Of a stretch of DNA of 64,000 bases, positions 39,883 through 55,586 are shown piece after piece. The notes beneath the pieces are model-generated. The model did no database searches and was not told the DNA's origin. It saw only the letters and a program-made list of their open reading frames with translations. The DNA comes from a bacterium (GTDB taxonomy: Bacteria > Patescibacteriota > Microgenomatia > UBA8517), in NCBI GenBank assembly GCA_030583725.1, contig CP129472.1, positions 334,958 to 398,957 of the forward strand. The letters are read 5' to 3'. Within the stretch, counting starts at the first letter, position 1. Every line of letters begins with the position of its first letter. The position numbers were made by a program, and so were the translations under genes.

Positions 39883-40344
39883 TTAATCAATTGCAACAAC
39901 CTCGTAGACTATCTTACCTACTGGCGCTTCAACTTCAAATTTTTCGCCTGCTTTTCTCCCAGCCAACGAAGATCCAAGAGGTGATGTATGACTAATTTTT
40001 TTGTTTGCTATATCAGCTTCCCATTCTCCAACTATTTCAAAAGTATTTTTAACACCATTTACACGAACTGTAACTCTTGAACCCACACCTGCACCAGATC
40101 CATTTTTAGCATCTGACACAACATCAGCGTTTTTAATAACTTGAGTTAGTTCTTCAATTTTCCCATCTAAAAACTCTAATTCTTCTTTTGAATTTTGATA
40201 GTCACTGTTTTCAGACAAATCACCTTGTGACCTTGCATTTGATAGTCTTTTAACTAATGCAGGCCTCTTTTTGTCCACCAAAAGTCCAAGCTCCTTTTTT
40301 AGAGCTTCTAAACCTTTTGTTGTTAATTGTATTTTATTTGCCAT
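39883..40344 (-). CDS. greA: transcription elongation factor GreA
   Basis: The N-terminal coiled-coil and C-terminal FKBP-like domain pattern; length 153 aa. Confidence 0.9.
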   Translation of the reverse strand: MANKIQLTTKGLEALKKELGLLVDKKRPALVKRLSNARSQGDLSENSDYQNSKEELEFLDGKIEELTQVIKNADVVSDAKNGSGAGVGSRVTVRVNGVKNTFEIVGEWEADIANKKISHTSPLGSSLAGRKAGEKFEVEAPVGKIVYEVVAID

Positions 40345-40581
40345 AATCCTTGTTTTTCAAAAAAAATAATCTCCCCTTAATTTGGAGAGATTTAAATAAT
40401 TGATTCTCTCCAACAAACCTTAAACCTTAATAATAAGGCTAGAACAAAACGGCATGTTGGAAAAAATATTCATTAGTTAAATAGTACCTAAGGCGTTTAT
40501 CAGTTCACGCGTGACAAACTCGTTTATCATATCCCTTGAACCATGCAAAGTCAAGTAGTCAGATTGTATCAAAAACTAATC

Positions 40582-40842
40582 TTACTTTAAACACTTTGCC
40601 TCAGACTTTACTTGTTCCGGAGAAATTCTATCACCTTGTACGTCTGCAAAAATTGAACCACCAGCAGAATCAGGTCCTCCACATGAATAACCCAAAGGAC
40701 AACTTCCGCATTTGACTTTTTTCACCATAGCAATATTTGTTCCTTCAGAAAAAATTATGCGATGACTATCTGTGGGGGATATACTAGCAGCCAAAATTTC
40801 TGTCATATGGCAATATATATCATAATGTTTTATTTTTTTCAA
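40582..40842 (-). CDS. hypothetical Cys-rich small protein
   Basis: CGSCPLGYSCGG motif. The start is uncertain because a 36-codon CPKCG zinc-ribbon ORF (40820-40930, minus strand) overlaps it in another frame. Confidence 0.3.
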   Translation of the reverse strand: MKKIKHYDIYCHMTEILAASISPTDSHRIIFSEGTNIAMVKKVKCGSCPLGYSCGGPDSAGGSIFADVQGDRISPEQVKSEAKCLK

Positions 40843-41069
40843 ATTGTTGTATTACCATATCGTTAAATTCTACATAAACAGTCCCCACCCTGCCACATTT
40901 TGGGCATCTGAATCTGAATGTGTGAGCCATCCGGGTCTGGAACCGTTTAGTCCCATAACCACTTGGTTCTTACCATTGTCTCACGTCCTGGCTAAACAAG
41001 ACAAATAAGACACTATAAAAGGACTGTCTCAGTTTACTGATGTATTTTGATATAGATAACTACTTATCC

Positions 41070-42722
41070 TTATAACTGAATCTCTTTTCCATCCGAACCA
41101 GCTATAGTCATCTTAATCTTAGAGTCCTTTTTGGGGTATTTTTCCAGAAACTCTTGATTTTCACTCACTAAGTAGATGGTGTGGTACTCGCTTCCATCCT
41201 TTCGCTTCAAATCTCTGCCTTTAAGCAAGCCTTCTCGCCTGAGTTTACGAATTGAGGACGGATGAACGCCTCTATTGGAAGTAATCTCAAATTTATCAAA
41301 CCACTCAGACTTGTCATCGTGTTTACTGCGTTTTAGTGGCGGAATGACACCTTCCACTATATTCCTTCGACAATCGACACAACGTAAGCCATCCAGATTC
41401 CACCAAATCTCATTTCCATAATGACTTTCACCACAAATGCCACAATTGTATGGACCTTCACTGGCTTCTAGGAAGAAACCATCTGGTTCTTTGGTAAGTC
41501 TGCGTTTTCGCATGTTTTCAATGCCGTCATGTTCACCAATGAGTCTTGCGAGTTGGACTAGATTGTTAGAAGCATATTTTTGTCGCTTAGCTTCATCAAT
41601 CTTTGATTTTGGTTTAACAGGTTCTTCTTTCTTGCCAGCGAGTTTAAGCATGTCTTCTTCACGCTCATGGCCCTTTAATCGACCTTCAAGGTATCCAAGT
41701 CTGTAACTGACACTATTGGAGAGTAATCGCCAGTTTGTGTCTTCTAGTGAGTTCTTAATGACCTTTTCTAGCTCCGAAACACTGATTCTGTCTCTTCTGG
41801 ATGAGTCGGCATCTTGAACGGTGAAGGGAACAATCACATATTGGCCTATTTCTGGTTTATCAAACGATAGTTTGGCGTATTTAGCGTTCTCAAGCGACTT
41901 GGTTAGCAAAGTTTCTAGATCAGAGATGTTGGTCTTCTTGAGCTGTAGAGAGCGCTCATAGACAGGATTATCGTACTTTTGCATTTCTTCTTCCCGTACG
42001 ACCTTAGCTACTTCCATCGCCTCTATCAGCTCAATGTATTCTTGACCCTCTTTGTCGGACAAACAGAACTCAGAGCGGTATTTTTCAAGTAACTCCTTGT
42101 CTTTTTTCTTCTCAGCTTCTCGTTCAAGATCTTTCTTGCCCAAATCCTCAACTTCAACTTTCTTGTATTTACATGAGGTACATTTTTCAGTGGTGGTTAT
42201 AACATCGCCTTTTCGTTTGTAGATGGTCTTTATCTCTTTACTACACTCAGGGCATAAATTTGGTTTTGAGATGTGTTCTTCACCATTGTCATACAAGCCT
42301 AGACGCTTCTTGCACTTTGGACATTCAAAAATAAACATAACTCGCATTGGTTTATCTTCTGGCCAGTCTTCCAGATGCTTAAAATCTTCGGCAACCATCT
42401 CGGTTTTACAATGGGGACACAAAACATTGGCAGGTGAAGGGGTATTGTCTACTTTGTCTTGCCTTACTCGATCTTTTTCTACCCAATCGCTGATAGTCTC
42501 TGCTTTACGTCGATATTCCTCACCCTTTTTAACTCGTAGATCCCAAGAAATGTAATGATTAAAACCTTTTTCTACTTCTTCTGGAGAAATTTCTTTAAGC
42601 TTGGGGTCGGTATCTTTTTTCTTGTATAAGTCTTGCCAGAAATGAATAACTTTTAAGCAGGCCTTTATAGTGAAAAGGTCGTAAAGATCAACATAATATT
42701 GTTCATCTTTAAGATATTTCAT
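41070..42722 (-). CDS. multi-zinc-ribbon protein (three CxxC...CxxC ribbons plus a KE-rich coiled coil), unknown family
   Basis: CPHCKTEM...CPKCKKR; CPECSKE...CTSCKYKK; CGICGES...CVDCRRN. A paralog occurs at 63204. Confidence 0.6.
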   Translation of the reverse strand: MKYLKDEQYYVDLYDLFTIKACLKVIHFWQDLYKKKDTDPKLKEISPEEVEKGFNHYISWDLRVKKGEEYRRKAETISDWVEKDRVRQDKVDNTPSPANVLCPHCKTEMVAEDFKHLEDWPEDKPMRVMFIFECPKCKKRLGLYDNGEEHISKPNLCPECSKEIKTIYKRKGDVITTTEKCTSCKYKKVEVEDLGKKDLEREAEKKKDKELLEKYRSEFCLSDKEGQEYIELIEAMEVAKVVREEEMQKYDNPVYERSLQLKKTNISDLETLLTKSLENAKYAKLSFDKPEIGQYVIVPFTVQDADSSRRDRISVSELEKVIKNSLEDTNWRLLSNSVSYRLGYLEGRLKGHEREEDMLKLAGKKEEPVKPKSKIDEAKRQKYASNNLVQLARLIGEHDGIENMRKRRLTKEPDGFFLEASEGPYNCGICGESHYGNEIWWNLDGLRCVDCRRNIVEGVIPPLKRSKHDDKSEWFDKFEITSNRGVHPSSIRKLRREGLLKGRDLKRKDGSEYHTIYLVSENQEFLEKYPKKDSKIKMTIAGSDGKEIQL

Positions 42723-42727
42723 AGCCT

Positions 42728-43579
42728 TTAACTGTCTTTATAGTTTCCTATCTCGAAAATAGCGGCCTGTAAAACCTGCCAGCTAATTTTTGCTGTATGT
42801 TCATGTGGACTAAAACCGCTCGCTACCTGCTGGTAGGGGTGAATGTAATTTCTAAAATCTCTTAGTGCGTGACTATGTTTCTTCACATCATCCCCCAAAA
42901 TTTTGAGATCACTCGCGGTGTCAATAAAATTAGATAGTGTCCAGTTGTGAAAAGGTAGAACTTTTCCTTCTTTCTGAGGGGCGCATTTTGATTGATTGAA
43001 TTTTCTAGCGTATTTACTTGCTGTCCCTAGAAGAATTCCTTCCAATGTGCTGCCACATAAGAAGATAGTTGCTAAAGAAGACTTTGATGATAAACACTTC
43101 CTAATTTCTTCAATTCTTTGGCTAAGGGTATCAGTGATTGTTGTATCCAAACCTAATTTTTCCAGAGAAACACTCTTAAATTCTTTATTTATAAATTCAT
43201 CTTCAGATGATACTTGATCTGATTGTTTTGGCGGTTGGCCTCCCACAAGTCTAATGACGATCTTTTGACATTCATCAAAAAGAGACTGATCGTTACTTGT
43301 AATAACCACGCCATCAATAAGCCTCTTTGTTTTCCAGTACTCTAGTAAGTCGGCTATTAACTTTCCGACAATATGGTTAGGCTCTTGCTCCCATAGAGAT
43401 CTCAGCCTATTAGCTTTTGATCCGCTTGCATAAGAGTATTTATCACTCCATATATCAATTTTTATAGCCGAATGAACAAACTCCTGAAGTTTTTGATTGG
43501 AAAGGTCAAGAACATAACCACCACCCATTTCAAGTATTCGTTCAAGTTTCAATTTTTCAATATTAGTAATATTTGACAT
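42728..43579 (-). CDS. hypothetical protein with C-terminal HEPN-like R-x6-H motif
   Basis: HALRDFRNYIHPYQQ near the C-terminus. There is a 6-nt gap to the AAA_13 gene upstream and a 5-nt gap to the ribbon gene downstream. Confidence 0.5.
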   Translation of the reverse strand: MSNITNIEKLKLERILEMGGGYVLDLSNQKLQEFVHSAIKIDIWSDKYSYASGSKANRLRSLWEQEPNHIVGKLIADLLEYWKTKRLIDGVVITSNDQSLFDECQKIVIRLVGGQPPKQSDQVSSEDEFINKEFKSVSLEKLGLDTTITDTLSQRIEEIRKCLSSKSSLATIFLCGSTLEGILLGTASKYARKFNQSKCAPQKEGKVLPFHNWTLSNFIDTASDLKILGDDVKKHSHALRDFRNYIHPYQQVASGFSPHEHTAKISWQVLQAAIFEIGNYKDS

Positions 43580-43585
43580 GTGTAT

Positions 43586-45814
43586 CTATCCAGTAATTGA
43601 TTTCTCCAATATTGAATAGTGTTCTGGGAATGTTGTTTGAATCATTTCAAGCAAATATTTAACATTCTTTTGAGTCTCTTGAACCAAAGAGGGATCAAGA
43701 CCTTTTCCAGTTATGTGTGATTGATCGTTTGTGAACTTATATATTGCTGTAAGTTTGTTTTGATCAAATTTATCATTTAATGATTCAAGTTTTTTGAACG
43801 GACTCTGGTTGCTTGGGACTCTAAACATTAAGAATGTCTCTAATGCTTTCCTGGCTATATTAGGCATATGATATACAGACATGATTGTGCCATCAGACTT
43901 AAATGTATAGAGAAGTTTAAAAAGAAAATGGTATTCACTCTCATGATCCTGAAGATCTTTGTCTAGCAGGGAGATGCTGGCTACTCTCCCCGCAGTAGTG
44001 TCAGTATTTTTGATCATGTAATAGCTTTTTTCGCCTGCACTGTTAGGAATATTTTTTACCCAATTTAAAAGTAATCTAAGAAAATCAAAATTGTGAGTCA
44101 GTACAAATATTTGCTTTGCATCCTTAACTGAATTTTTTAAGAAGGCAAAAGCTTGAAATAATGAATTAGAATCTAAACTAGATACAGGGTCGTCTATTAC
44201 TAAAATTCCTTCTTTCGTGTCAAAATTCTGATCCTGTAAATGAACAGTAAAATACACGAATGCAATTGCTGTTTTTTCTCCCTCACTTAAATTCTCAGCT
44301 ATTTTTCCATGTCGCTTAATAACATAACCATCACCTTCTACCTCAAAAGTTATTTCATCCCTTCCTAGGAAAGTTTTTATACCATCATTAATCGCCTTAC
44401 AGGCTTTGTGCGAGGAAGATATTTTGCTCTTATTTTCGATGATGGCCTTACTTGTTGATTCAAGATCACTCTTTTTGTTGGTCAAGTCTTTCTTGCTATT
44501 TTCCATTTTTGTCTCAAGTTCATTGATGTCATCAAAAATAGTGCTTAAATAATGTTTTTCCAATTCTTTTTGGGCATTTAATTTTTCATTCTTAAAATTG
44601 TTTGATTTATCATTATGCTGTTTGATCAATTCATTTATTTCACTGATTGCACTAAGAAATTCATCTAGATTTATTTTTTGTTCAAAATTAACTACTTCAG
44701 TGGTCTTTGACTTTTTTTCTTTTACTAAAGTTCCAGCTTTTGTGATCTCACCTAGGATGGTCTTTTTTACTGTCTCAAATTTCTCTGCCTTCTTTTGGTA
44801 ATCTGGTTGAATTTCATCATAAAGATTCGCTTTATCTATCGTTTTTACTGTCTCAATCTGTGAATAAAGTGACCTGAGGTCAGATAAATTCTCGTCGATT
44901 TTAATCTTTAGCTTTTTGTCAGCGTCATTGAAGTGTTTTGCGAGCTCGAGAAGCCTTTCTTTTGGTAAACTTTGATTACAGAATTCGCAGACGGTTGACT
45001 TGTGTGTTTCGTGGATGTGAATACCATTTTCAACCCACTCTGAAATATCGGCATTGTCTTTTAGTTTGTCTATTATTACTGTTTCAACAGTTTCTCTACA
45101 CAAGTTAACGGCTACCTCATTTATTTTTTCTATACCTTTATTGGTGTCATAGGTATTACCCCCAATCACCAACTGAGGAGTGGAAAGTAGGGTTAGCTGA
45201 GGCTTTTCTAGTTGTCTAAGGGTGAGGTTATGCTTAGTAAGTCCAGCCTCATCAATCAATTCCTTCTTTAAAAGTTTTTTGAAAGCTTCTTCGGCGTCTC
45301 GTTTGTCATACCGACGAGTGGCCTCACCTGAGGTGTTGGAACTAATTGTTCTCGCAATATCAGTAAACTTCTTATTTTTATCCTTTTCTTGATTTTCCAA
45401 ATCTAGTTTATGTTTCTTGATTTGAGAATTAAGGCTGATAACTTCTTTCTCATCCTTTTCTATCTGATCTGCAATTTTTTTATTCTCTTCTCCCAGAATG
45501 TATATTGGTTTTGCAGTACAAGATAAGACCTGTACATTATTTGCAACATAATCTTGATTGAACACTCTCACTTTTCTGGAGTAGGTTGTTCCTTGCTTGG
45601 TTACTCCAGATTCAGAATCAATTTCATATTCCAGTTCCGGGAACTTAGTTGACTGTCCAGATTCGAGGGTGTCAAAAAGACTAGAAAGAGTGGTTTTGCC
45701 ACAGCCATTCCATCCATAAATAATGTTGTACCTTTTAAAATCAGGCAAAGAAGAATCCCAGACATAGTCACTGAATATTCCTAAGTTTTTTATCTTCTTA
45801 ATTTTCTTGATCAT
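43586..45814 (-). CDS. AAA_13/RloC-like ABC-type ATPase with long coiled coil and CxxC zinc hook
   Basis: Starts MIKKIKKIKNLGIFSDY (a typical AAA_13 N-terminus), Walker A GWNGCGKTT, a coiled coil of more than 400 aa containing CEFC, and Walker B/D-loop LVIDDPVSSLD. I trimmed 20 codons from the ORF-track start. Confidence 0.7.
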   Translation of the reverse strand: MIKKIKKIKNLGIFSDYVWDSSLPDFKRYNIIYGWNGCGKTTLSSLFDTLESGQSTKFPELEYEIDSESGVTKQGTTYSRKVRVFNQDYVANNVQVLSCTAKPIYILGEENKKIADQIEKDEKEVISLNSQIKKHKLDLENQEKDKNKKFTDIARTISSNTSGEATRRYDKRDAEEAFKKLLKKELIDEAGLTKHNLTLRQLEKPQLTLLSTPQLVIGGNTYDTNKGIEKINEVAVNLCRETVETVIIDKLKDNADISEWVENGIHIHETHKSTVCEFCNQSLPKERLLELAKHFNDADKKLKIKIDENLSDLRSLYSQIETVKTIDKANLYDEIQPDYQKKAEKFETVKKTILGEITKAGTLVKEKKSKTTEVVNFEQKINLDEFLSAISEINELIKQHNDKSNNFKNEKLNAQKELEKHYLSTIFDDINELETKMENSKKDLTNKKSDLESTSKAIIENKSKISSSHKACKAINDGIKTFLGRDEITFEVEGDGYVIKRHGKIAENLSEGEKTAIAFVYFTVHLQDQNFDTKEGILVIDDPVSSLDSNSLFQAFAFLKNSVKDAKQIFVLTHNFDFLRLLLNWVKNIPNSAGEKSYYMIKNTDTTAGRVASISLLDKDLQDHESEYHFLFKLLYTFKSDGTIMSVYHMPNIARKALETFLMFRVPSNQSPFKKLESLNDKFDQNKLTAIYKFTNDQSHITGKGLDPSLVQETQKNVKYLLEMIQTTFPEHYSILEKSITG

Positions 45815-45995
45815 AGTTTTCAATAAACTTCTTGATATCTTCTTTTCTATATTTCCTGTCTTTTCTTGTTCCAAATCGTACAGCCTTAAGAATGCCTTTT
45901 TTATCCCACAATCTTAAGGTATTAGGATGAACTTTTAATAGTTCACAGGCCTCCCTCATGCTCAGTAGTTCTGGTATTTTGTCGTCATTTTTCAT
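45798..45995 (-). CDS. excisionase/AlpA/MerR-type helix-turn-helix DNA-binding protein
   Basis: LSMREACELLKVHPNTLRLWDKKGIL HTH; length 65 aa. Confidence 0.6.
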   Translation of the reverse strand: MKNDDKIPELLSMREACELLKVHPNTLRLWDKKGILKAVRFGTRKDRKYRKEDIKKFIENYDQEN

Positions 45996-46226
45996 TTTTT
46001 GTTAACCTACCAATAGTTAACAATAACTTACACCAATTTCCTTCTAATGACAAATAAAGTCTTGATTGCTAAAACCTTGTCAAGTGGGTAGTTTCGGTGA
46101 ATTTAAAAAACTGAAGAAAATTATTTAGGTCGTTAAATCGGTCTATTTTATGTATTACCCTCCGTTTCACCCACCTCCACCGTGTCACCTAGGTCATTCA
46201 AAAACCCGTGGTAAATTGGCTTAATT

Positions 46227-47555
46227 ATGAAAGACACAAAGATTCAAACGGTGGAAGTTCCCGTGAACGAACTCATCACACCAGACTATAACCCTCGCAA
46301 GCATGACGACCTTGCTAAAGAACAATTAAAAGAAAGCATCCGTCGATTTGGGATTGTCGACCCGATAGTCGCAAACTCCTCGCTTGCCCGCAAAAACATA
46401 GTTATCGGAGGCAACTTTAGGTTGGAGACAATCAAAGAGCTAGGTTACACCACCGTTCCTGTCGTATACGTCGATATACCAGATCTTGATAGGGAAAAAG
46501 AACTCAATATTCGCCTCAATAAAAATACTGGCGAGTTTGATTGGAATCTGTTGGCGAAGTTCGATGTCTCGCTACTTACTGATATTGGTTTTACCAGCGG
46601 TGAACTCGACACGATCTTTGATATCGAAGACACGCCTGAGGAATTTAATCTTGAAAAAGAGTTAAAGAAGCTAGACATAGAGACTATAAACACTAAAAAA
46701 GGTGATGTGTATGAGTTGGACGGAAGTCGGTTAATGTGTGGCGACTCAACAATAGTAGAAGACTTCACCAAGCTTATGAATGGTGAGAAAGCGGATATGT
46801 GTTTTACTGATCCGCCTTACATCCTCGATTACCTCAATGGCAAGAAAAAGCATGGCTCGGCAGTTACAGGGTTTGGTGCAAAGCGAGATAGAAGATATTT
46901 GGAAACTGATGTGCTTCCACCAGACTTTACTGAGAAATGGATGGGCAATATCGCCAAAGCCCAAAAAGAACATTTCAGTATTATTGTTTACGAGAACTGG
47001 AAGAACATTCGTACCATTTGGGGTGAGATGGAGAAATTCTGGAAGGTTAAGAACATGATCGTCTGGCACTTACCCAACAGACATCAAGGATTTTCAGCTA
47101 AACACAAGTTTTTCTCTAAACATGACATAGCCATGGTTGGTGCTTCACCAGATGTAGATGTTGAGTTCAACTGGGAAGAAGAAGCAGACGGGTTACAAGA
47201 AGAATACGAGACCGCACTATATGCCATAGCAGGCAAACCCCACTGGGAAGGCTACGAGCGAGGCAGGAAGAACCAACCAACTGATTTCATCGAGTACGTA
47301 GCCTCAGATGAGAAGCATTCTGGGCAAGGTGTAATTTTTGGTACGAAGCCCACTGAAATCCTCATTCCATATATTAAGATGCTCACTAAGCGTGGCGATC
47401 TCATTATTGAGCCATTTGGAGGCAGTGGAAGCACTCTGATGGCCTCAACCAAGATGAAGCGCCGATGCTACATCATGGAAAAATCGCCAGTCTATACCGA
47501 GGTCATTATTAAACGCTGGGGAAAGCTGACTGGACTAAAAGCAAAGAAACTATGA
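46227..47555 (+). CDS. ParB-like nuclease domain fused to beta-class N6A/N4C DNA methyltransferase
   Basis: An N-terminal ParB/Srx fold pattern, then DPPY (CFTDPPYILDY) and a later FGGSGST motif I (EPFGGSGSTLMA). This is the beta order, IV before I. Confidence 0.8.
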   Translation: MKDTKIQTVEVPVNELITPDYNPRKHDDLAKEQLKESIRRFGIVDPIVANSSLARKNIVIGGNFRLETIKELGYTTVPVVYVDIPDLDREKELNIRLNKNTGEFDWNLLAKFDVSLLTDIGFTSGELDTIFDIEDTPEEFNLEKELKKLDIETINTKKGDVYELDGSRLMCGDSTIVEDFTKLMNGEKADMCFTDPPYILDYLNGKKKHGSAVTGFGAKRDRRYLETDVLPPDFTEKWMGNIAKAQKEHFSIIVYENWKNIRTIWGEMEKFWKVKNMIVWHLPNRHQGFSAKHKFFSKHDIAMVGASPDVDVEFNWEEEADGLQEEYETALYAIAGKPHWEGYERGRKNQPTDFIEYVASDEKHSGQGVIFGTKPTEILIPYIKMLTKRGDLIIEPFGGSGSTLMASTKMKRRCYIMEKSPVYTEVIIKRWGKLTGLKAKKL

Positions 47556-48148
47556 TCGATGAAACTACTGCCAAACGCCAAGCGAGGAATAAGGAACTAC
47601 TGTTACTACAGTTCACTAAGATACCAATTGTCCAAATTGCATGTGAGAAGGTTGGGATTAGCCGAGCCAGTTACTATCGCTGGCGACAAGAAGACAAAGA
47701 TTTTGCTGATAAATCTGATGTGGCCATTGGCGAAGGAACTCTACTCATGAATGACATGGCAGAGTCTCAGCTTCTTTCATTAATAAAGGATAAGCACCCA
47801 ACAGGAATTATCTTTTGGCTTAAACATCATCATCCCACTTATGCGCCAAAATATGAGATTTCAACGATCAGCAATAAAGATAGCCTGACGGAAGCAAATA
47901 TAAATGAACTGACACAGCTTCTCTATAACAAAAGCACCTTTAAACAGGGTCAGGAGATGCTGACCTCATATGTTTTTAGAGGTTTTATCAGCGAAAAATT
48001 TGCCCAGTTAATACTAAAGATGTTTATCTCCCAACTTCGAGCTGAAGATGTTATGACCAGAAAAGCTGAAGCTGAAATTATGACTGAAGTCCTAAGAAGA
48101 AAAGTAGAACGCAAAGAAAAGAAGAAATTCGAAAAAACATGGACTTAA
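47552..48148 (+). CDS. HTH-domain protein (terminase-small-subunit / transposase-HTH-like)
   Basis: IACEKVGISRASYYRWRQED HTH. A 4-nt overlap with the upstream gene. Confidence 0.45.
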   Translation: MIDETTAKRQARNKELLLLQFTKIPIVQIACEKVGISRASYYRWRQEDKDFADKSDVAIGEGTLLMNDMAESQLLSLIKDKHPTGIIFWLKHHHPTYAPKYEISTISNKDSLTEANINELTQLLYNKSTFKQGQEMLTSYVFRGFISEKFAQLILKMFISQLRAEDVMTRKAEAEIMTEVLRRKVERKEKKKFEKTWT

Positions 48149-48933
48149 ATAAAGCATCTCTCATTCAAAAGATTATTTCAAAAGGTGTGGTTCTGACACC
48201 ATTTGAAGCGATTCAGTTGCGATATCTCGAACGTAAGGGCATTTTGAACGGCCTCATTAATATTGAGAGAGAAGCCAATCCATACATTGCCGCTGAACGA
48301 GCAACGGGGCCAATTTCACCTGTGATGGTCAACTTTATGGTTCAACAAACAAGAGCCGAATCACCTGATGAGTACCAGGAATATAACTTTGCCTATGAAT
48401 CCATGCTCGATCAAGATAGTAATAGCACCAAGCAGGCATATAAAGGGTTAATGCTGATAACTCAACTCAGGCTAATTAAAGCGGAATTTCAAGCAACACC
48501 AATTCATAAGACCAAAGGTTCCTTGTTAGATTTTGGCTCGTATTCTTATTATCACCACAGCACCAAAACTTTCACTCAAACTTTAGAGTCTTTGGGAGAC
48601 ACATTTAAATACTTTATTCAGGACATCGATAACATTCTGACATTGAACTGTTATCTTCATGAGTTAGCGGAACTAAAAGATTTCCAGTGTCTGAGTTTAT
48701 TAAAGTTGTGGTTAAGTAAGCCAATAAGCAGTCACAATGAGGACTTTGAATATTTAAATGGAGCGTATCTTTGTTGTAGTTCGGAAATGATCAATTTGGT
48801 ATTAGATAGAAACCATCAAAACTATGTTGATGGTTTAGAACGTCATGTTGGACACATATCTATAGATTTCGCAGAAAATTCGCTTAAGTACGTTAAGAGC
48901 GTACTTGGAGATTTAACTAAAGCAGATCTTTAA
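48139..48933 (+). CDS. hypothetical protein
   Basis: A 264-codon ORF with a 10-nt overlap with the upstream gene. Confidence 0.45.
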   Translation: MDLNKASLIQKIISKGVVLTPFEAIQLRYLERKGILNGLINIEREANPYIAAERATGPISPVMVNFMVQQTRAESPDEYQEYNFAYESMLDQDSNSTKQAYKGLMLITQLRLIKAEFQATPIHKTKGSLLDFGSYSYYHHSTKTFTQTLESLGDTFKYFIQDIDNILTLNCYLHELAELKDFQCLSLLKLWLSKPISSHNEDFEYLNGAYLCCSSEMINLVLDRNHQNYVDGLERHVGHISIDFAENSLKYVKSVLGDLTKADL

Positions 48934-49340
48934 AGTCCAAGGATCTGTTTTTTCTTCTGGTCAAACTCTTCTTGGGTTAAGATTCCTTTGTCTTTAAGTT
49001 GACTAAGCTTCTCGAGTTCATCTGCGTCACTTGCTCCACCTGATTTTTTCTTCATCAGATTAAGGATGAGTTCTTCAGCCTTCTTGGCTTCGGCAACTTT
49101 CACAAAAGGAGCTTCGAGCTTTTGATCACCTGTACCAAACACTTTGACGGTAGCTGCTCCTGGAGACATGAATACAGCCGCCATCACTACTTTAATTTCA
49201 ACTCCTGTGAGTTGTTCTTTCATGATGGTGTTAGCCTTATATGATCCGAGGAATTTAAGCTCTATAGCGACTCTGTCGTCATAGACCATTAAGAATCCTT
49301 TGGTGGTTCTGGCTTTAAGTAGTACTTTCATAGTTTTCAC
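48930..49340 (-). CDS. SHOCT-domain protein
   Basis: The C-terminal LKDKGILTQEEFDQKKKQIL is the SHOCT motif. Confidence 0.6.
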   Translation of the reverse strand: MKTMKVLLKARTTKGFLMVYDDRVAIELKFLGSYKANTIMKEQLTGVEIKVVMAAVFMSPGAATVKVFGTGDQKLEAPFVKVAEAKKAEELILNLMKKKSGGASDADELEKLSQLKDKGILTQEEFDQKKKQILGL

Positions 49341-49741: not shown

Positions 49742-52417
49742 ATGTCACAGCTATTTAAATCAATTTACTTTCCAAATTACAGCGATCAAGATTCTAAGTC
49801 ATTTACTCTAGCTTTTTCAGAGAAGGACTTAGATTTATACGATATTCTAAAAAATATCTCTAGCCTTGAGATTAGAAGTTTGCTATCCGCTCAAACACTC
49901 AAAGATCTGACTGACAAAGCAGATCAAGAGCATTTGGCACTAAACACCTACTGTCTTTGGAAACTACGTAAAAACTTTTCGCAAAGCCACACTAATGAGG
50001 AAGGGGTTAATGGCCAGTTACCATTATTGAAAATTGACCCCATTCATGTAACCTTCGAAGGTGGCAAGAAGCTTCCATTACAATCTTGGTTTCCCTACCT
50101 CGAGGGATATTCTCCAGATTTTGTTACTCACATAATTAACAACTATTTGAATAAAAATACCAGAACAATTTATGATCCGTTTTCTGGGTCAGGAACTACC
50201 CCACTAGTAACTTCTACTTTGAAGTACACATCTTATTATTCAGAGGTAAATCCGTTACTGCAATTTTTATCTCAAACAAAGTTTAAGGCTAGAAATATCG
50301 TAAATAAAGAGAAGACAATTGAAATACTAAACGAGATAAAATCTAATCTTAAAAAGAATATTATCAAACAAGCCGAAGATGAAGTATTAAGGAAAGCATA
50401 TCAAGACACTTTTGGAAGCAGTAAATTCTTTAACGATGAAGTATTTTCATACATACTTAAAACAAAGACTTATTTGAATGGTTTATCTAAGTCTGAAAAT
50501 TTAATATCTGACCTAGTTTGTACTGCCGTATTGGGGAGTTTGATAAAAGTTTCACTATTAAAACGACAAGGTGATCTGAGATTCAAAAATCAAAGTGAGC
50601 TCTTAAAGGCTAAAAAATCTGAATATTTTGAGACTCTAGAACAATGTCTTCAAAATATAATCGACGATCTTAAAGTGATAAAAAAAGCCTCCGAACCCAT
50701 ATTTCTAACTGACGACGCTCGAAAGTTAAAGGATTTGGAATCAGTTGGAATCGATGCTGTCATCACAAGCCCACCATATTTAAATGGAACAAACTATTTT
50801 AGAAACACAAAAGTTGAGCTTTGGTTTTTGGGAAATTTGAAAACTCCAAAGGATCTAAATGAATTCCGAAGACAGGCGGTGACGGCTGGTATTAACGATG
50901 TTTCTTTCAAAGAAGAAAAACTTATCGAGAACAAACAACTTAATGATTTACTAGAAATCATGAGAAAAAATGCTTATGACAAGAGAATTCCGAAGATGGT
51001 TCATGATTATTTTGCTGATATGAAGATTATCTTTGAAGGACTACAAAGACACTTAAATGATAATGCAGTGTTGGCAATTGATTTGGGTGACTCGATTTAT
51101 AGTGATGTTCATGTAAAAACTGATGAAATATTAATTTCCATATTGACTAATATTGGATATAAATTCGAAAAAAATGTTGTTTTGCGCAGAAGAATATCTA
51201 AAAGTGGTGCTGAATTACGACAGGTATTGCTAATCTTTAGATACTCGAAACCAAAGAAGGACAGCCTAGTTCCATTGGACCAAGCGTATGCTTGGCAAAA
51301 TTCATGGAATGATTTTAAGAAAGACCTGCCCCATCAAAAAGTTCCTTTCTCTAAGAGAAATTGGGGTGATCCTATGCACTCACTCTGTTCATATCAAGGA
51401 AAGCTAAAGCCATCCATAGCAAATATGTTGGTATCGATATTTGTCCCTCCAAATGGATCGGTATTAGATATTTTTGCAGGAGTTGGCACTATTCCATTAG
51501 AAGCTGCGCTACAAGGCAAAAAATCTTTTGGATTCGATATTAGTAACCCAGCAATTGCAATTTCTCGAGCAAAGTTGACATTGCCATCAAAAGAAAGAAC
51601 TTATGAAATAATCTCAGATCTAGAAAGCCACATCCGAAATGAAAGTGTTGATGAAATGATCCATGAAAAAGCGGAAAGGTTTGGATTTAATAAAAAATTA
51701 GTAGATTATTTTCATAAAGATACTCTAAATGAGATTTTAGTATCGAGAGAGTATTTTAGAAAAAACGGGTTCGATACTCCAGAGAAATCTATTGTTCTTG
51801 CATCCATTCTTCACATATTACATGGCAACAGACCATATGCCCTCAGTAGAAGGTCTCATGGGATTACTCCATTTGCACCAACTGGAGAATTTGAGTACAA
51901 AAATTTAATTACAAAACTAAAAGAAAAAATTGATCGTTCATTTAAACACTTTGATAGGACCAATTTTGCAAAAGGTAAAATGTACTTTCAAAACTCTTTG
52001 AAGCCTTGGCCAGAAGAAGTTAAAAACTTAGATTCGATAATAACAAGCCCTCCTTTTTTTGATAGCACAAGATTTTATGTATCAAACTGGATGAGACTTT
52101 GGTTCGCAGGATGGGATGAGGAAAACTTTAAAACAGATTCTGTTGACTTTATAGAGGAATTACAGAAAAAGGATTTCTCTGTATATAACTCAATATTTAG
52201 TCAAGCAAAGGAGAGACTCAAAAAAAATGGAACGCTTGTGATGCATCTCGGAAAAAGCAAGAAGTGTGACATGGCAACCGTTTTATCTGAAAAAGCTAAA
52301 CCATGGTTTGATACTGCAGATATCTTTGAGGAGAGTGTTAGAAAAGGTGAGTCACATGGTGTTACTGACAAAGGAACGGTTGTTGATCACCAATATCTTG
52401 TTCTTATTCCAAACTAA
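49742..52417 (+). CDS. tandem double DNA methyltransferase (two alpha-class N6A/N4C MTase domains, M.FokI-like architecture)
   Basis: Domain 1 has motif X-I (WFPY...IYDPFSGSGTT) and motif IV (ITSPPYLNG). Domain 2 has HSLCSYQGKLKP...VLDIFAGVGT and IITSPPFFDS. Confidence 0.7.
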   Translation: MSQLFKSIYFPNYSDQDSKSFTLAFSEKDLDLYDILKNISSLEIRSLLSAQTLKDLTDKADQEHLALNTYCLWKLRKNFSQSHTNEEGVNGQLPLLKIDPIHVTFEGGKKLPLQSWFPYLEGYSPDFVTHIINNYLNKNTRTIYDPFSGSGTTPLVTSTLKYTSYYSEVNPLLQFLSQTKFKARNIVNKEKTIEILNEIKSNLKKNIIKQAEDEVLRKAYQDTFGSSKFFNDEVFSYILKTKTYLNGLSKSENLISDLVCTAVLGSLIKVSLLKRQGDLRFKNQSELLKAKKSEYFETLEQCLQNIIDDLKVIKKASEPIFLTDDARKLKDLESVGIDAVITSPPYLNGTNYFRNTKVELWFLGNLKTPKDLNEFRRQAVTAGINDVSFKEEKLIENKQLNDLLEIMRKNAYDKRIPKMVHDYFADMKIIFEGLQRHLNDNAVLAIDLGDSIYSDVHVKTDEILISILTNIGYKFEKNVVLRRRISKSGAELRQVLLIFRYSKPKKDSLVPLDQAYAWQNSWNDFKKDLPHQKVPFSKRNWGDPMHSLCSYQGKLKPSIANMLVSIFVPPNGSVLDIFAGVGTIPLEAALQGKKSFGFDISNPAIAISRAKLTLPSKERTYEIISDLESHIRNESVDEMIHEKAERFGFNKKLVDYFHKDTLNEILVSREYFRKNGFDTPEKSIVLASILHILHGNRPYALSRRSHGITPFAPTGEFEYKNLITKLKEKIDRSFKHFDRTNFAKGKMYFQNSLKPWPEEVKNLDSIITSPPFFDSTRFYVSNWMRLWFAGWDEENFKTDSVDFIEELQKKDFSVYNSIFSQAKERLKKNGTLVMHLGKSKKCDMATVLSEKAKPWFDTADIFEESVRKGESHGVTDKGTVVDHQYLVLIPN

Positions 52418-53015
52418 TTGAACTAGGAAACTTACCAGTTTTTTTTCTATAAATGGAGATCAAGTCGATATTTGTTGTAGTAAGAACTTTATTCAGAGCT
52501 TTAAAAATGAGATCTGCAACTTTTTTGCCTTTCTTAATCTTTTGGTAGTCATTTCTTGATAAAAAGTCTTCGAAAACCCACTCAACGTTTTCTTTAAGGA
52601 GACCAGAAACTGACTCATTCACTGTTCTTTCTTTGCTCGAAATAACTTCATAGGGAATCCCAGTTAATTTTGAAAGAATCATTAACTTGTTTTTGTCGTA
52701 AAGTTTAAATTCACTGGGAAAAAGATCGTGTTTCAAAGAGTTACAACTCTTACATAAAGCTGTAGCCGTGGCATCCAAGGGCCAAAGATAGACAAGTGGA
52801 AGTGTGTGATCGATATCCATATCGGTAATTTTTTCTAGCTTCTTGCCACAACCAAAACAAGATTTCGAAAAGTTATTCCAAATATAGTCCTGAAATTCTA
52901 TCCCATTCGCACTACGAAACGTCTTTACGACATCTTGTTTGGTAAGCTCGATAATAAGACGTTCGAAAGCCCGCCTTCGCGCACTGTCTTCGTGGTGTTG
53001 AGCTTTATTTCGCAA
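52404..53015 (-). CDS. HNH endonuclease
   Basis: CFGCGKK...DIDHTLPL...CKSCNSLKHD is an HNH/zinc motif. It converges on the double MTase with a 14-nt overlap. Confidence 0.65.
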   Translation of the reverse strand: MRNKAQHHEDSARRRAFERLIIELTKQDVVKTFRSANGIEFQDYIWNNFSKSCFGCGKKLEKITDMDIDHTLPLVYLWPLDATATALCKSCNSLKHDLFPSEFKLYDKNKLMILSKLTGIPYEVISSKERTVNESVSGLLKENVEWVFEDFLSRNDYQKIKKGKKVADLIFKALNKVLTTTNIDLISIYRKKTGKFPSSISLE

Positions 53016-53981: not shown

Positions 53982-55337
53982 TTGACTACTGAAATGAGTG
54001 CCAAATACAACCAAAATACGACGATAGAACCGCCCAAGATAGAATATTGTCTCTATGCTCGTAAGTCTTCGGAATCCGATGAAAGGCAAGCAATGTCGAT
54101 TGATTCTCAGATTGATGAGATGCTGACTTTAGCTAAACGAGATAATTTAAAAATTAAAGCGATTAAAAAAGAAAGTCATTCTGCAAAAATGTCTGGATCA
54201 AGACCTGTATTTACTGAATTACTTCAAGATTTAAGACAAAAGAAATTTAACGGAATTTTAACTTGGGCTCCTGATAGGCTTTCGAGAAACGCAGGAGACT
54301 TAGGATCTGTAGTTGATTTAATGGATCAAGGAAAATTAGTAAAAATCCAGACATATTCACAAAGTTTTTCAAACAGTCCAAATGAAAAGTTTTTATTAAT
54401 GATTCTCTGCTCTCAAGCAAAGCTTGAAAATGATAACAAAGGATTAAACGTTCAAAGAGGGTTGAGAACTAAGTGTAGTATGGGGTGGAGACCATCAGTT
54501 GCTCCTCTGGGTTATCTAAATCAAGCAGGAGATGGACATAAAGACGAACTCATCATTATTGACCAAGAACGATCCTCCTTTGTCAAACAGATGTTTGATC
54601 GGATGGCGAACCAAGGTCACAGTGGAAGGGCTATAAAGAACTGGTTAGATAGAATTGGGTTTAAAACTAAAAATGATAAACCACTAGCATTAAGTAGGTT
54701 ATATACAACTCTTAGTAACCCTTTTTATTATGGAGAATTTGAATTTCCAGTTGGAAGTGGAACTTGGTATCAAGGAAAGCATAAACCATTAATCTCAAAG
54801 GAATTGTTTGACAAAGTTCAAATAATGCTTGAAACACCTCCAAAAAGCTATCACAATAAGATCTTTCCGTTTAAAAAGATATTTAGATGTGGTGGTTGTA
54901 ACGGTGGAATAACTGCTGATGACAAACTTAGAAAATTAAAAGGTGGTGGGTATACTAAACATATTTACTATCACTGTGCTAGATCTGTAAATTACGAGTG
55001 TGACGAGCCGTATATTACCGAAAACGATTTAGTAAAACAATTAATTGCAAACATAGATAAAATTAAATTCAACAACTCTGGTATAAATAGAAAAATTCAA
55101 GAAGATATTGAAAGATATCATAGACTAAAAACACAAGTGCTACACCAAGAATTTATAGACGGGTATCTACCAGAATTTAATAGAGTTCCACAAACCACAA
55201 TTGATAAAAACGAAATGACTAAAAACTATCTTTTGCACATATTACAAGTTGGAACTGCTGAAGAAAGACAAGAAGCATTGAGTTTTATCAAAACTAAATT
55301 TATTCTATCTAAAAGAACTATAACAATAGAAAAATAA
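53982..55337 (+). CDS. large serine recombinase (phage-type serine integrase)
   Basis: A resolvase catalytic domain (YARKSSESDERQAMSIDSQ with the catalytic Ser), a recombinase domain and a zinc ribbon (CGGCNG...HCARS); length 451 aa. Confidence 0.85.
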   Translation: MTTEMSAKYNQNTTIEPPKIEYCLYARKSSESDERQAMSIDSQIDEMLTLAKRDNLKIKAIKKESHSAKMSGSRPVFTELLQDLRQKKFNGILTWAPDRLSRNAGDLGSVVDLMDQGKLVKIQTYSQSFSNSPNEKFLLMILCSQAKLENDNKGLNVQRGLRTKCSMGWRPSVAPLGYLNQAGDGHKDELIIIDQERSSFVKQMFDRMANQGHSGRAIKNWLDRIGFKTKNDKPLALSRLYTTLSNPFYYGEFEFPVGSGTWYQGKHKPLISKELFDKVQIMLETPPKSYHNKIFPFKKIFRCGGCNGGITADDKLRKLKGGGYTKHIYYHCARSVNYECDEPYITENDLVKQLIANIDKIKFNNSGINRKIQEDIERYHRLKTQVLHQEFIDGYLPEFNRVPQTTIDKNEMTKNYLLHILQVGTAEERQEALSFIKTKFILSKRTITIEK

Positions 55338-55512
55338 CTCCAGATTAATATCTGGTGTACTTTTCGTTGTCTAAACTTGGTCTAAAACAAGGCCATTTCT
55401 TCACTATTACAGGATATAAAAGTGTTTTCTGGGCAAGATGATAGAAGATTAGCAAGTGTTGTTGAGCTTTTCTGGCCATGCGAGCAGGTCTGGCTGAACC
55501 TTGCGATATATG

Positions 55513-55586
55513 TGACCCCAGTGAGATTCGAACTCACGATCTCTTGGATGAGAACCAAGTGTCCTAGGCCACTAGACGATGGGGCC
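55513..55586 (-). tRNA. tRNA-Glu (anticodon CUC)
   Basis: Hand-folded cloverleaf on the minus strand. The acceptor stem is GGCCCCA/UGGGGUC, the D-arm is UCUAGUGGCCUAGGA, the anticodon stem CUUGG/CCAAG has loop UUCUCAU, and the T-arm is GUUCGAAUC. No encoded CCA. Confidence 0.8.

Follow-up and report, generated by a model that had tools for sequence, protein, structure and literature searches.

A predicted RloC-type anticodon nuclease and two independent protein families encoded on the variable arm of an integrative, phage-derived element of Patescibacteria

Results

Gene content of the locus

The DNA analysed here, referred to as the window, is a 64,000-nucleotide (nt) stretch of contig CP129472.1, which is 842 kb long and has QY322_ locus tags, from a member of the Patescibacteriota (assembly GCA_030583725.1). 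On its minus strand lie four adjacent genes that the original prediction had read as a single undescribed defence module, composed of a small helix-turn-helix (HTH) protein, an RloC-like ATPase, a HEPN-like protein (here P3) thought to be the nuclease split off from that ATPase, and a zinc-ribbon protein (here P4). All four open reading frames (ORFs) were recovered at the positions first given for them, and the motifs quoted in support of them (Walker A, CEFC, D-loop, RDFRNYIH and the zinc ribbons) were all present.

45798-45995, minus strand: HTH gene; 65 amino acids (aa), MerR/excisionase-type HTH, first gene of the operon
43586-45814, minus strand: ATPase gene; 742 aa from the ATG giving MIKKIKKIKNLGIFSDY, predicted RloC-type anticodon nuclease
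42728-43579, minus strand: P3 gene; 283 aa, two-domain HEPN protein
41070-42722, minus strand: P4 gene; 550 aa, zinc-ribbon protein

Gaps of 5 to 7 nt had been reported throughout. When the junctions were read from the sequence, this was correct for the ATPase and P3 genes (6 nt) and for the P3 and P4 genes (5 nt), whereas the first pair overlaps by 17 nt, the HTH stop codon (TAA, 45800-45798) lying downstream of the ATPase ATG (45814-45812). A promoter and terminator scan of 40300-46300 gave counts not above those of shuffled sequence, with no convincing internal promoter or terminator. Since the spacing is very tight and no such signal was found, the four genes are probably co-expressed, and they are described here as probably co-transcribed yet separate units.

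The ATPase

Profile searches placed the ATPase in a known family. Pfam AAA_13 matches residues 12-722 (E 1.8e-134), the PADLOC model PDC-S06 (PDLC04894, a single-gene candidate) matches the full length of the protein (E 2.4e-260, residues 1-738 against model positions 1-736 of 740), and homologs bear the Joint Genome Institute (JGI) name 'wobble nucleotide-excising tRNase'. The arrangement as a whole had not been recognised as any named system; the full-length match to PDC-S06 (RloC) shows that its ATPase belongs to one. Conserved positions were identified in an alignment of 33 homologs with 48-81% identity. The Walker A motif GWNGCGKTT, LSEGE and LVIDDPVSSLD are all present and invariant, the fixed positions being G34, G39-K40, T42, L509-S-E-G-E513 (LS..E), D541-D-P543 (with S546/D548) and the switch histidine H574. 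A hook motif, C276-E-F/Y-C279 (CEFC in the window), retains its CxxC in 33/33 homologs and lies halfway from Walker A (residue 40) to the signature motif (residue 509), in an insert predicted to be coiled-coil from its composition and the full-length AAA_13 match.

RloC has been treated in the literature by Davidov and Kaufmann (2008) and Klaiman et al. (2012). It is defined by ATP-binding cassette (ABC) motifs, a coiled-coil/zinc-hook insert and a triad Arg-X3-Glu-X36-52-His in which a Ser often precedes the His (Davidov & Kaufmann, PMC2610378). In the Geobacillus protein (GkaRloC) the triad is R692/E696/H737, and mutation of any one of the three residues abolishes activity (PMC2610378). The ATPase of the window carries R655-x3-E/D659-x40-S699-H700 at its C-terminus, the 40 residues between position 659 and H700 giving a spacing identical to that of GkaRloC. 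R655, K656 and H700 are invariant in the 33 homologs and S699 is present in 32, while position 659 is Glu in 17 and Asp in 16. By its predicted domains the ATPase is a complete RloC-type anticodon nuclease (ACNase), with an ABC head, a zinc-hook insert and a fused C-terminal HEPN-type ACNase domain. The initial recognition of an RloC-like protein with a zinc hook was therefore sound, as the full-length AAA_13 and PDC-S06 matches and the invariant CxxC attest. The proposal that its nuclease resides in a separate gene was not, because the ATPase keeps its own R655/E-D659/H700 triad with the GkaRloC spacing, which argues for a nuclease fused to the ATPase, as it is in all RloC proteins.

Genomic context was collected for eight RloC homolog loci (loci are designated here by L numbers). 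The order HsdM-HsdS-RloC-HsdR was found in L171 and L179, and HsdM-HsdS-RloC in L170, whose contig ends within the next gene. Homologs follow type II restriction-modification (R-M) genes in L178 and L180, stand alone in L172 and sit in elements related to that of the window in L169 and L033. These contexts agree with a self-contained, restriction-linked gene. A PDB sequence search returned no solved relatives of the ATPase or of P3, and no RloC relatives were confirmed in IMG/VR.

Two other identities were considered for the ATPase and rejected. PrrC, an ABC-ATPase with ACNase of about 400 aa that always lies in a type I R-M locus and has no coiled-coil/zinc-hook insert, does not fit a 742-aa protein with a CxxC insert; the PADLOC PrrC model covers residues 444-729 only (E 7.7e-10), and no type I R-M system adjoins the gene in the window. 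Lamassu was set aside since the LmuB model matches only part of the protein (E 4e-15) and no LmuA is present.

Co-occurrence of the four genes

Co-occurrence was assessed in the eight RloC loci, in 80 loci containing P4 and in 80 metagenomic loci containing P3, 37 of which extend at least 2.5 kb upstream of P3. Among the P4 loci, an RloC homolog was found in one (1/80; L033, directly upstream of P4) and a P3 homolog in one (1/80), 7 kb away on the other strand. None of the 37 P3 loci with sufficient upstream sequence has an RloC homolog adjoining P3 (0/37), and P4 was found in none of the P3 loci (0/80). Of the RloC loci, none contains P3 (0/8) and one contains P4 (1/8), so that the HEPN-like and ribbon genes are, apart from this single case, not neighbours of homologous ATPases in other loci.

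The closest relative of the window is L169, where a 78% identical HTH copy precedes an 81% identical RloC homolog; the ParB-methylase of the element, described below, is 80% identical. DNA similarity between the two spans the HTH and RloC genes, stops at the RloC stop codon and resumes only in a 133-nt segment after the P4 stop. In place of P3 and P4, L169 has genes for a Ser/Thr protein kinase (Pkinase), a 192-aa protein and a SEC-C protein. Because the genes do not co-occur, and because L169 replaces P3 and P4 while keeping HTH and RloC, the genes are judged independent. It is likely that HTH and RloC form one cassette and that P3 and P4 are separate occupants of a variable arm, and the notion of one four-gene module does not survive these counts. 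The kinase, 192-aa and SEC-C genes that follow HTH and RloC in L169 (9236-11723) may be another uncharacterised cargo set.

The HTH protein itself matches Pfam HTH_17 (E 1.1e-10) and also MerR_1, and the PADLOC mad1 model finds it at E 1.5e-8. An assignment as MAD1 of the MADS system was rejected, the NCBIfam MAD1 model scoring 16.4 bits against a cut-off of 80. In 10/12 other loci, an HTH homolog precedes an unrelated large gene by 7-31 nt; such genes include methylases, type IIG-like genes and genes for 892- and 954-aa proteins. The HTH protein is a putative generic controller of a kind that heads many R-M and defence operons, and in the window it is probably the controller of the operon, setting its expression level.

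P3

An AlphaFold2 (AF2) model of P3, with a mean predicted local distance difference test (pLDDT) score of 88.4, shows two all-helical domains, an N-domain (residues 1-111) and a C-domain (about 146-283) with the alpha-helical HEPN fold. Pfam DUF4145 (PF13643), a HEPN family (Anantharaman et al. 2013), aligns with residues 158-247 at 22.1 bits, just under the cut-off of 23.1 (E 1.6e-4), and one homolog of P3 (P0015) has a precomputed PF13643 match. No PADLOC (E<=1) or PHROG model matches P3. The motif L-R240-D-F-R243-N-Y-I-H247-P (LRDFRNYIHP) was examined in 43 homologs: S236, H237, R243, N244 and H247 are invariant, and R240, which completes R-x6-H, is kept in at least 90%. The HEPN-like character first proposed for this protein is thus borne out by the modelled fold, and its R-x6-H motif is a conserved feature of the family. 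The N-domain has no invariant Cys in the same 43 homologs.

The P3 family is large (>4,700 matches). In about 32 of the 80 homolog loci it occupies a constant position, HsdM-HsdS-[P3]-(0-2 variable genes)-HsdR, the hsdS stop being 0-20 nt from the P3 start. The copy in the window has no hsd genes nearby. Closer homologs stand alone among defence genes (Mrr, Schlafen/AlbA, TIR, KAP NTPase), and one lies in a small HTH-containing islet (L089). A variation on the type I R-M arrangement was seen in L184 (3547-4513, minus strand), where genes for an HTH protein (69 aa) and a 250-aa protein are followed by HsdM and HsdS. The 250-aa protein has the P3 N-domain at 40% identity over residues 1-122 and a different C-domain with a HEPN-like RNEKAH motif. 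Since the same N-domain is joined there to another C-domain within an HTH-X-HsdM-HsdS operon, the P3 N-domain looks like a swappable module tied to type I R-M, with interchangeable HEPN ends. P3 is classed here as a new member, at family level, of the DUF4145-like, restriction-linked HEPN proteins, and the family may represent a counterpart of PrrC that lacks an ATPase and is wired into type I R-M complexes.

The integrative element and its variable arm

The four genes had been placed within an integrative island carrying defence genes, and this was confirmed. G+C content is 0.38-0.42 over 40-49 kb, against about 0.34 elsewhere in the window, and a serine recombinase gene lies by a tRNA-Glu gene. 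The main features of the element are as follows.

40922-41054, minus sense: about 135 nt of conserved non-coding sequence immediately following the P4 stop, with TGTCTC/GAGACA inverted repeats
46227-47555, plus strand: ParB_N + N6/N4 DNA methyltransferase (ParB-methylase); Pfam ParB_N and N6_N4_Mtase, PHROG 498 (E 1.2e-76)
47552-48148, plus strand: terminase-small-subunit-like (TerS-like) HTH protein; PHROG terminase small subunit families (E 3.5e-6)
53982-55337, plus strand: large serine recombinase (integrase); Pfam Resolvase, Recombinase and Zn_ribbon_recom, PHROG 95 integrase (E 3.2e-60)
55512-55586, minus strand: tRNA-Glu(CTC), found by ARAGORN and Rfam, adjoining the integrase and probably marking the island boundary

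The ParB-methylase gene is transcribed divergently from the HTH gene and forms the conserved proximal flank of the variable arm. Its homologs were found in 29/80 P4 loci; in the 20 loci where identity exceeds 55%, the gene lies upstream of P4 on the opposite strand, at distances ranging from 0.25 kb (an empty arm) to 8.9 kb. A TerS-like gene follows in 21-22 loci, with a TerL-like gene (Pfam Terminase_6C) behind it in relatives. The latter is missing in the window; the element, without a large terminase, looks like a satellite or decayed prophage. At the site of the TerL-like gene, which encodes about 510 aa in relatives, the window has a 264-aa ORF without a family match (48139-48933, plus strand). 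Homologs of the serine recombinase were found in 16 P4 loci. A backbone of ParB-methylase, TerS-like protein, TerL-like protein, XRE regulator and large serine integrase thus recurs across relatives. Compact, phage-derived integrative elements of this type recur in Patescibacteria, and the four genes lie in the variable cargo arm of the one in the window. This arm extends from the divergent ParB-methylase promoter region to the conserved terminal segment of about 135 nt.

The contents of the arm are unrelated between loci and include LexA/S24 regulators, type I, IIG, III and ISP R-M systems, SMODS, Hachiman-like genes, UvrD and DUF2779, among others. When 65 cargo proteins were classed by Pfam, most belonged to R-M, helicase, SMODS and S24 families. 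The cargo is often headed by a LexA/S24 repressor or by an HTH gene of the type found in the window.

The terminal segment is 88.7% identical in L169, where it follows a different cargo, and 13 further loci have it too, in each case 0-7 kb downstream of P4. Its identity across the 14 loci is 76-95%, above that of the neighbouring genes. Its copy in L009 overlaps the 3' end of a serine recombinase gene; the one in L031 is about 0.4 kb away from such a gene. The segment ends in a T-arm-like stretch, GGTTCCAGACC; this tRNA-like 23-mer has no second copy in the window, and an Rfam search of 40300-41100 in E-value mode gave no match. The fold z-score of the segment is -2.0. The segment probably forms the conserved distal end of either the variable arm or the whole element, and may serve as an element terminus or as a binding region for the integrase or a regulator.

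P4

Three zinc ribbons had been recognised in P4, and their Cys residues proved to be strictly conserved: six pairs (C102/105, C134/137, C157/160, C181/184, C427/430 and C448/451) are invariant in 36 homologs. The AF2 model (pLDDT 84.8) starts with a helical hairpin and a two-ribbon beta domain; a coiled coil then leads on to a ferredoxin-like alpha/beta domain, the third ribbon and a winged-HTH (wHTH)-like end. No family match was found in Pfam, PADLOC or PHROG. The structure found nothing in BFVD, there was no whole-protein match in PDB or BFVD, and a profile search of PDB sequences gave ZPR1 at E 0.026 only. The profile found 997 clusters at 50% identity, the commonest form being about 360 aa long and equivalent to residues 1-365; the family core of about 360 aa has two zinc ribbons and an alpha/beta domain. 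P4 is probably a DNA- or zinc-binding protein, and the conservative guess is that it binds DNA in the element.

The genes directly upstream of P4 in 75 loci belong to 65 families, and the gap to P4 has a median of 7 nt. Of these 75 genes, 58 share the strand of P4, and for 44 of the 58 the gap is no more than 30 nt or the genes overlap. Genes found upstream include CBASS-like SMODS, a Hachiman-like HamA with helicase, KAP NTPase and many R-M systems. Downstream, 60 families were counted in 74 loci. Besides backbone genes, the only recurrent neighbour of P4 is a gene for a DUF2779/Cas4-like nuclease (about 500 aa), which lies no more than two genes upstream in about nine loci (L011, L014, L021, L039, L064, L066, L175, L176 and L177). 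P4 is absent from three close relatives of the element (L169, L182 and L184), and among contigs selected by the ParB-methylase it was present in one of three informative cases. The idea that P4 is an obligatory backbone 'anchor' gene was rejected on account of the three relatives without it and its position inside the variable arm. P4 is a frequent but facultative last gene of the arm, and is not a specific partner of RloC.

These distributions also bear on the possibility that P4 is a shared accessory, placed 3' of many unrelated defence and R-M operons as a common DNA-binding regulator, as a sensor, or as a factor for capturing or stabilising cargo. Such a role would explain the constant last, translationally coupled position. 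It agrees with the predominance of close, same-strand upstream genes across 65 families, with the size and conservation of the family, its invariant zinc sites and wHTH-like end, and with the recurrence of the DUF2779/Cas4-like gene nearby. However, L169, L182 and L184 do without P4, its downstream neighbours are just as variable as those upstream, no fold or family match points to a function, and tight packing is usual in the small genomes of Patescibacteria. A shared accessory role is therefore possible and rather doubtful, and P4 is treated here as a facultative occupant of the arm.

Other features of the window and its relatives

Beyond the terminal segment, 40345-40921 makes up the rest of a 725-nt gap before greA. 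This region contains a minus-strand ORF (40582-40842) for an 86-aa Cys/Gly-rich protein (CGSCPLGYSCGG) and a terminator-like hairpin at 40392-40368. Within the island, 48930-49340 (minus strand) encodes a 136-aa protein with a C-terminal SHOCT domain (PHROG 2700). An 891-aa protein is encoded at 49742-52417 (plus strand) and matches the N6_N4 methylase model over residues 337-607 and further methyltransferase models at about 549-640. Convergent with this gene, and overlapping it by 14 nt, is a 203-aa gene with a weak HNH match (52404-53015, minus strand). The pair also occurs in L011 at about 71% identity and may be an R-M-like unit of the island. Many contigs with the same Patescibacteria-type element (L010, L012, L013, L018, L020 and others) are labelled as 'uncultured Gammaproteobacteria' or 'Pseudomonadales' metagenome-assembled genomes (MAGs), and these labels or the underlying binning are probably wrong.

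Discussion

Taken together, the results remove the 'split RloC' four-gene system as a false lead. RloC is already known, and the variable arm is the Patescibacteria version of the prophage and satellite defence hotspots. Several points weigh against treating HTH-RloC, P3 and P4 as independent occupants of the arm. The very tight spacing (an overlap of 17 nt, then gaps of 6 and 5 nt) probably entails shared expression, so that functional cross-talk in the host is possible. The P4 loci were chosen by P4 itself, the RloC sample is small (eight loci), and most of the sequences are MAG contigs that are possibly chimeric. Direct or inverted repeats of the attachment (att) type between the gap on the P4 side and the tRNA-Glu/integrase end amounted to an inverted 11-mer only, about the level expected by chance. 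Finally, the island showed no type I R-M system that P3 could have as a partner in cis.

With these points in mind, two further ways of joining the genes can be considered. RloC and P3 could be a locally assembled pair of HEPN-type RNases, layered or mutually dependent, with P3 for example serving as a backup against phage tRNA repair, or both answering the same trigger. The two genes are 6 nt apart, and since both families occupy a 'restriction-linked' niche elsewhere, they may respond to related signals. The pair is nevertheless adjacent in no other locus (0/37 and 0/8), HTH and RloC occur without P3 in L169, and P3 in type I operons does without a conserved ATPase partner, since whatever genes separate it from hsdR are variable or absent; we therefore regard a functional pair as improbable. 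Still less credible, to the point of being very improbable, is the dedicated four-component system of the original prediction, in which an RloC-like ATPase would control a separate nuclease (P3) and a zinc-ribbon sensor (P4). It would account for four co-directional, near-contiguous genes that all have defence-type features, and L033 does have an RloC homolog directly upstream of P4. Yet the ATPase has an intact ACNase triad of its own, co-occurrence is at background level (1/80, 1/80, 0/37 and 0/8), L169 keeps HTH and RloC while exchanging P3 and P4, and the P3 and P4 families are large, each with other consistent contexts. A housekeeping repair ATPase of the SMC/RecN/Rad50 type, which a coiled-coil ABC ATPase with a zinc hook might suggest and to which weak SMC_N Pfam matches in some homologs could point, can practically be dismissed, since AAA_13 and PDC-S06 cover the full length, the C-terminal ACNase triad is conserved, and neither family, motifs nor the mobile, R-M-linked context, which lacks repair genes, indicates an SMC/RecN/RecF protein in a repair neighbourhood.

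The reading of HTH-RloC as a cassette of its own, with P3 and P4 as separate genes, is consistent with the following mechanism, in which all activities and triggers are what we infer from the observed gene identities, motifs, folds and distributions. RloC would be a self-contained abortive-infection enzyme acting like Geobacillus RloC, its expression level, with that of the rest of the operon, being set by the HTH protein. By homology, the Rad50-like ABC head, a DNA-dependent ATPase, would together with the zinc hook hold the C-terminal HEPN anticodon nuclease silent until DNA ends or phage-induced DNA damage, plus ATP, released it. The tRNA wobble nucleotide would then be excised and translation would stop, irreversibly with respect to phage tRNA repair; in RloC, wobble-nucleotide excision is known to block translation beyond phage tRNA repair (PMC3458546). 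For P3, the N-domain would couple to a trigger, either the state of an R-M complex or a phage product, and the HEPN domain (R240/R243...H247) may be active as a dimer and then cleave RNA, as in RAZR. Because family members sit in hsd operons, P3 may respond to the state of a type I R-M complex, in the way that PrrC does.

The genomes of Patescibacteria are tiny, and these bacteria had been considered poor in defence. The present results indicate that they carry phage-derived integrative elements that exchange R-M, CBASS-like, Hachiman-like and RloC-type systems, in the manner of the P2/P4 and phage-inducible chromosomal island (PICI) hotspots of Proteobacteria. They also bring to light two large families that lie outside Pfam-A (above threshold), PADLOC and PHROGs, namely a predicted HEPN RNase that is embedded in R-M operons and has a modular N-domain (P3) and an arm-marking zinc-ribbon protein (P4). 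Either could be used as bait for new defence systems in uncultured lineages.

Among known systems, RloC, which surveys such as PMC12447246 count as a defence system, is the direct counterpart of the ATPase. The two share size class, ABC motifs, a coiled-coil insert with a central CxxC and the triad spacing, and homologs of the ATPase occur inside type I R-M operons, the position of a 'restriction-linked ORF'. The window copy differs in lying on a Patescibacteria mobile element behind a small overlapping HTH gene, and its clade, known from sequence alone, in alternating between Glu and Asp at position 659. PrrC, the E. coli anticodon nuclease of the prr type I R-M locus, is homologous to it as an ABC-ATPase with a HEPN ACNase and has the same triad, but, without a coiled-coil/zinc-hook insert, reaches only about half its size. 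PrrC also shares a niche with the P3 family, in both cases an RNase gene (for P3, a putative one) inserted between hsdS and hsdR, whereas P3 has no ATPase domain at all.

For P3 the nearest comparison is RAZR/PD-T7-4 (Nature 2026, PMC13017515), in which the DUF4145 residues R146 and H154 are needed for defence. Both proteins combine a small N-terminal domain with a C-terminal DUF4145-like HEPN domain, a plan also common to the DUF4145-like HEPN group (Anantharaman et al. 2013). Both have a long-spaced Arg...His pair (R-x6-H in P3, R146...H154 in RAZR) and are single-gene proteins of defence islands and R-M operons. RAZR has a Cys4 zinc finger at its N-terminus, while the P3 N-domain is all-helical and has none; moreover, the P3 family prefers the interior of type I R-M operons and its DUF4145 score falls just under the cut-off. 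PD-T7-4 is listed in the literature as a recognised defence type, yet no PADLOC model matches P3.

The element as a whole resembles the prophage and satellite defence hotspots (P2/P4 hotspots, bioRxiv 10.1101/2021.01.21.427644; PICI-type) in being an integrase-bearing, phage-derived element in which unrelated defence and R-M systems are swapped between conserved landmarks. It differs from them in its Patescibacteria host, in the use of a serine recombinase as integrase and in the landmarks themselves, which are a ParB-methylase/TerS module on one side and the 135-nt terminal segment on the other, with an arm that often ends in P4.

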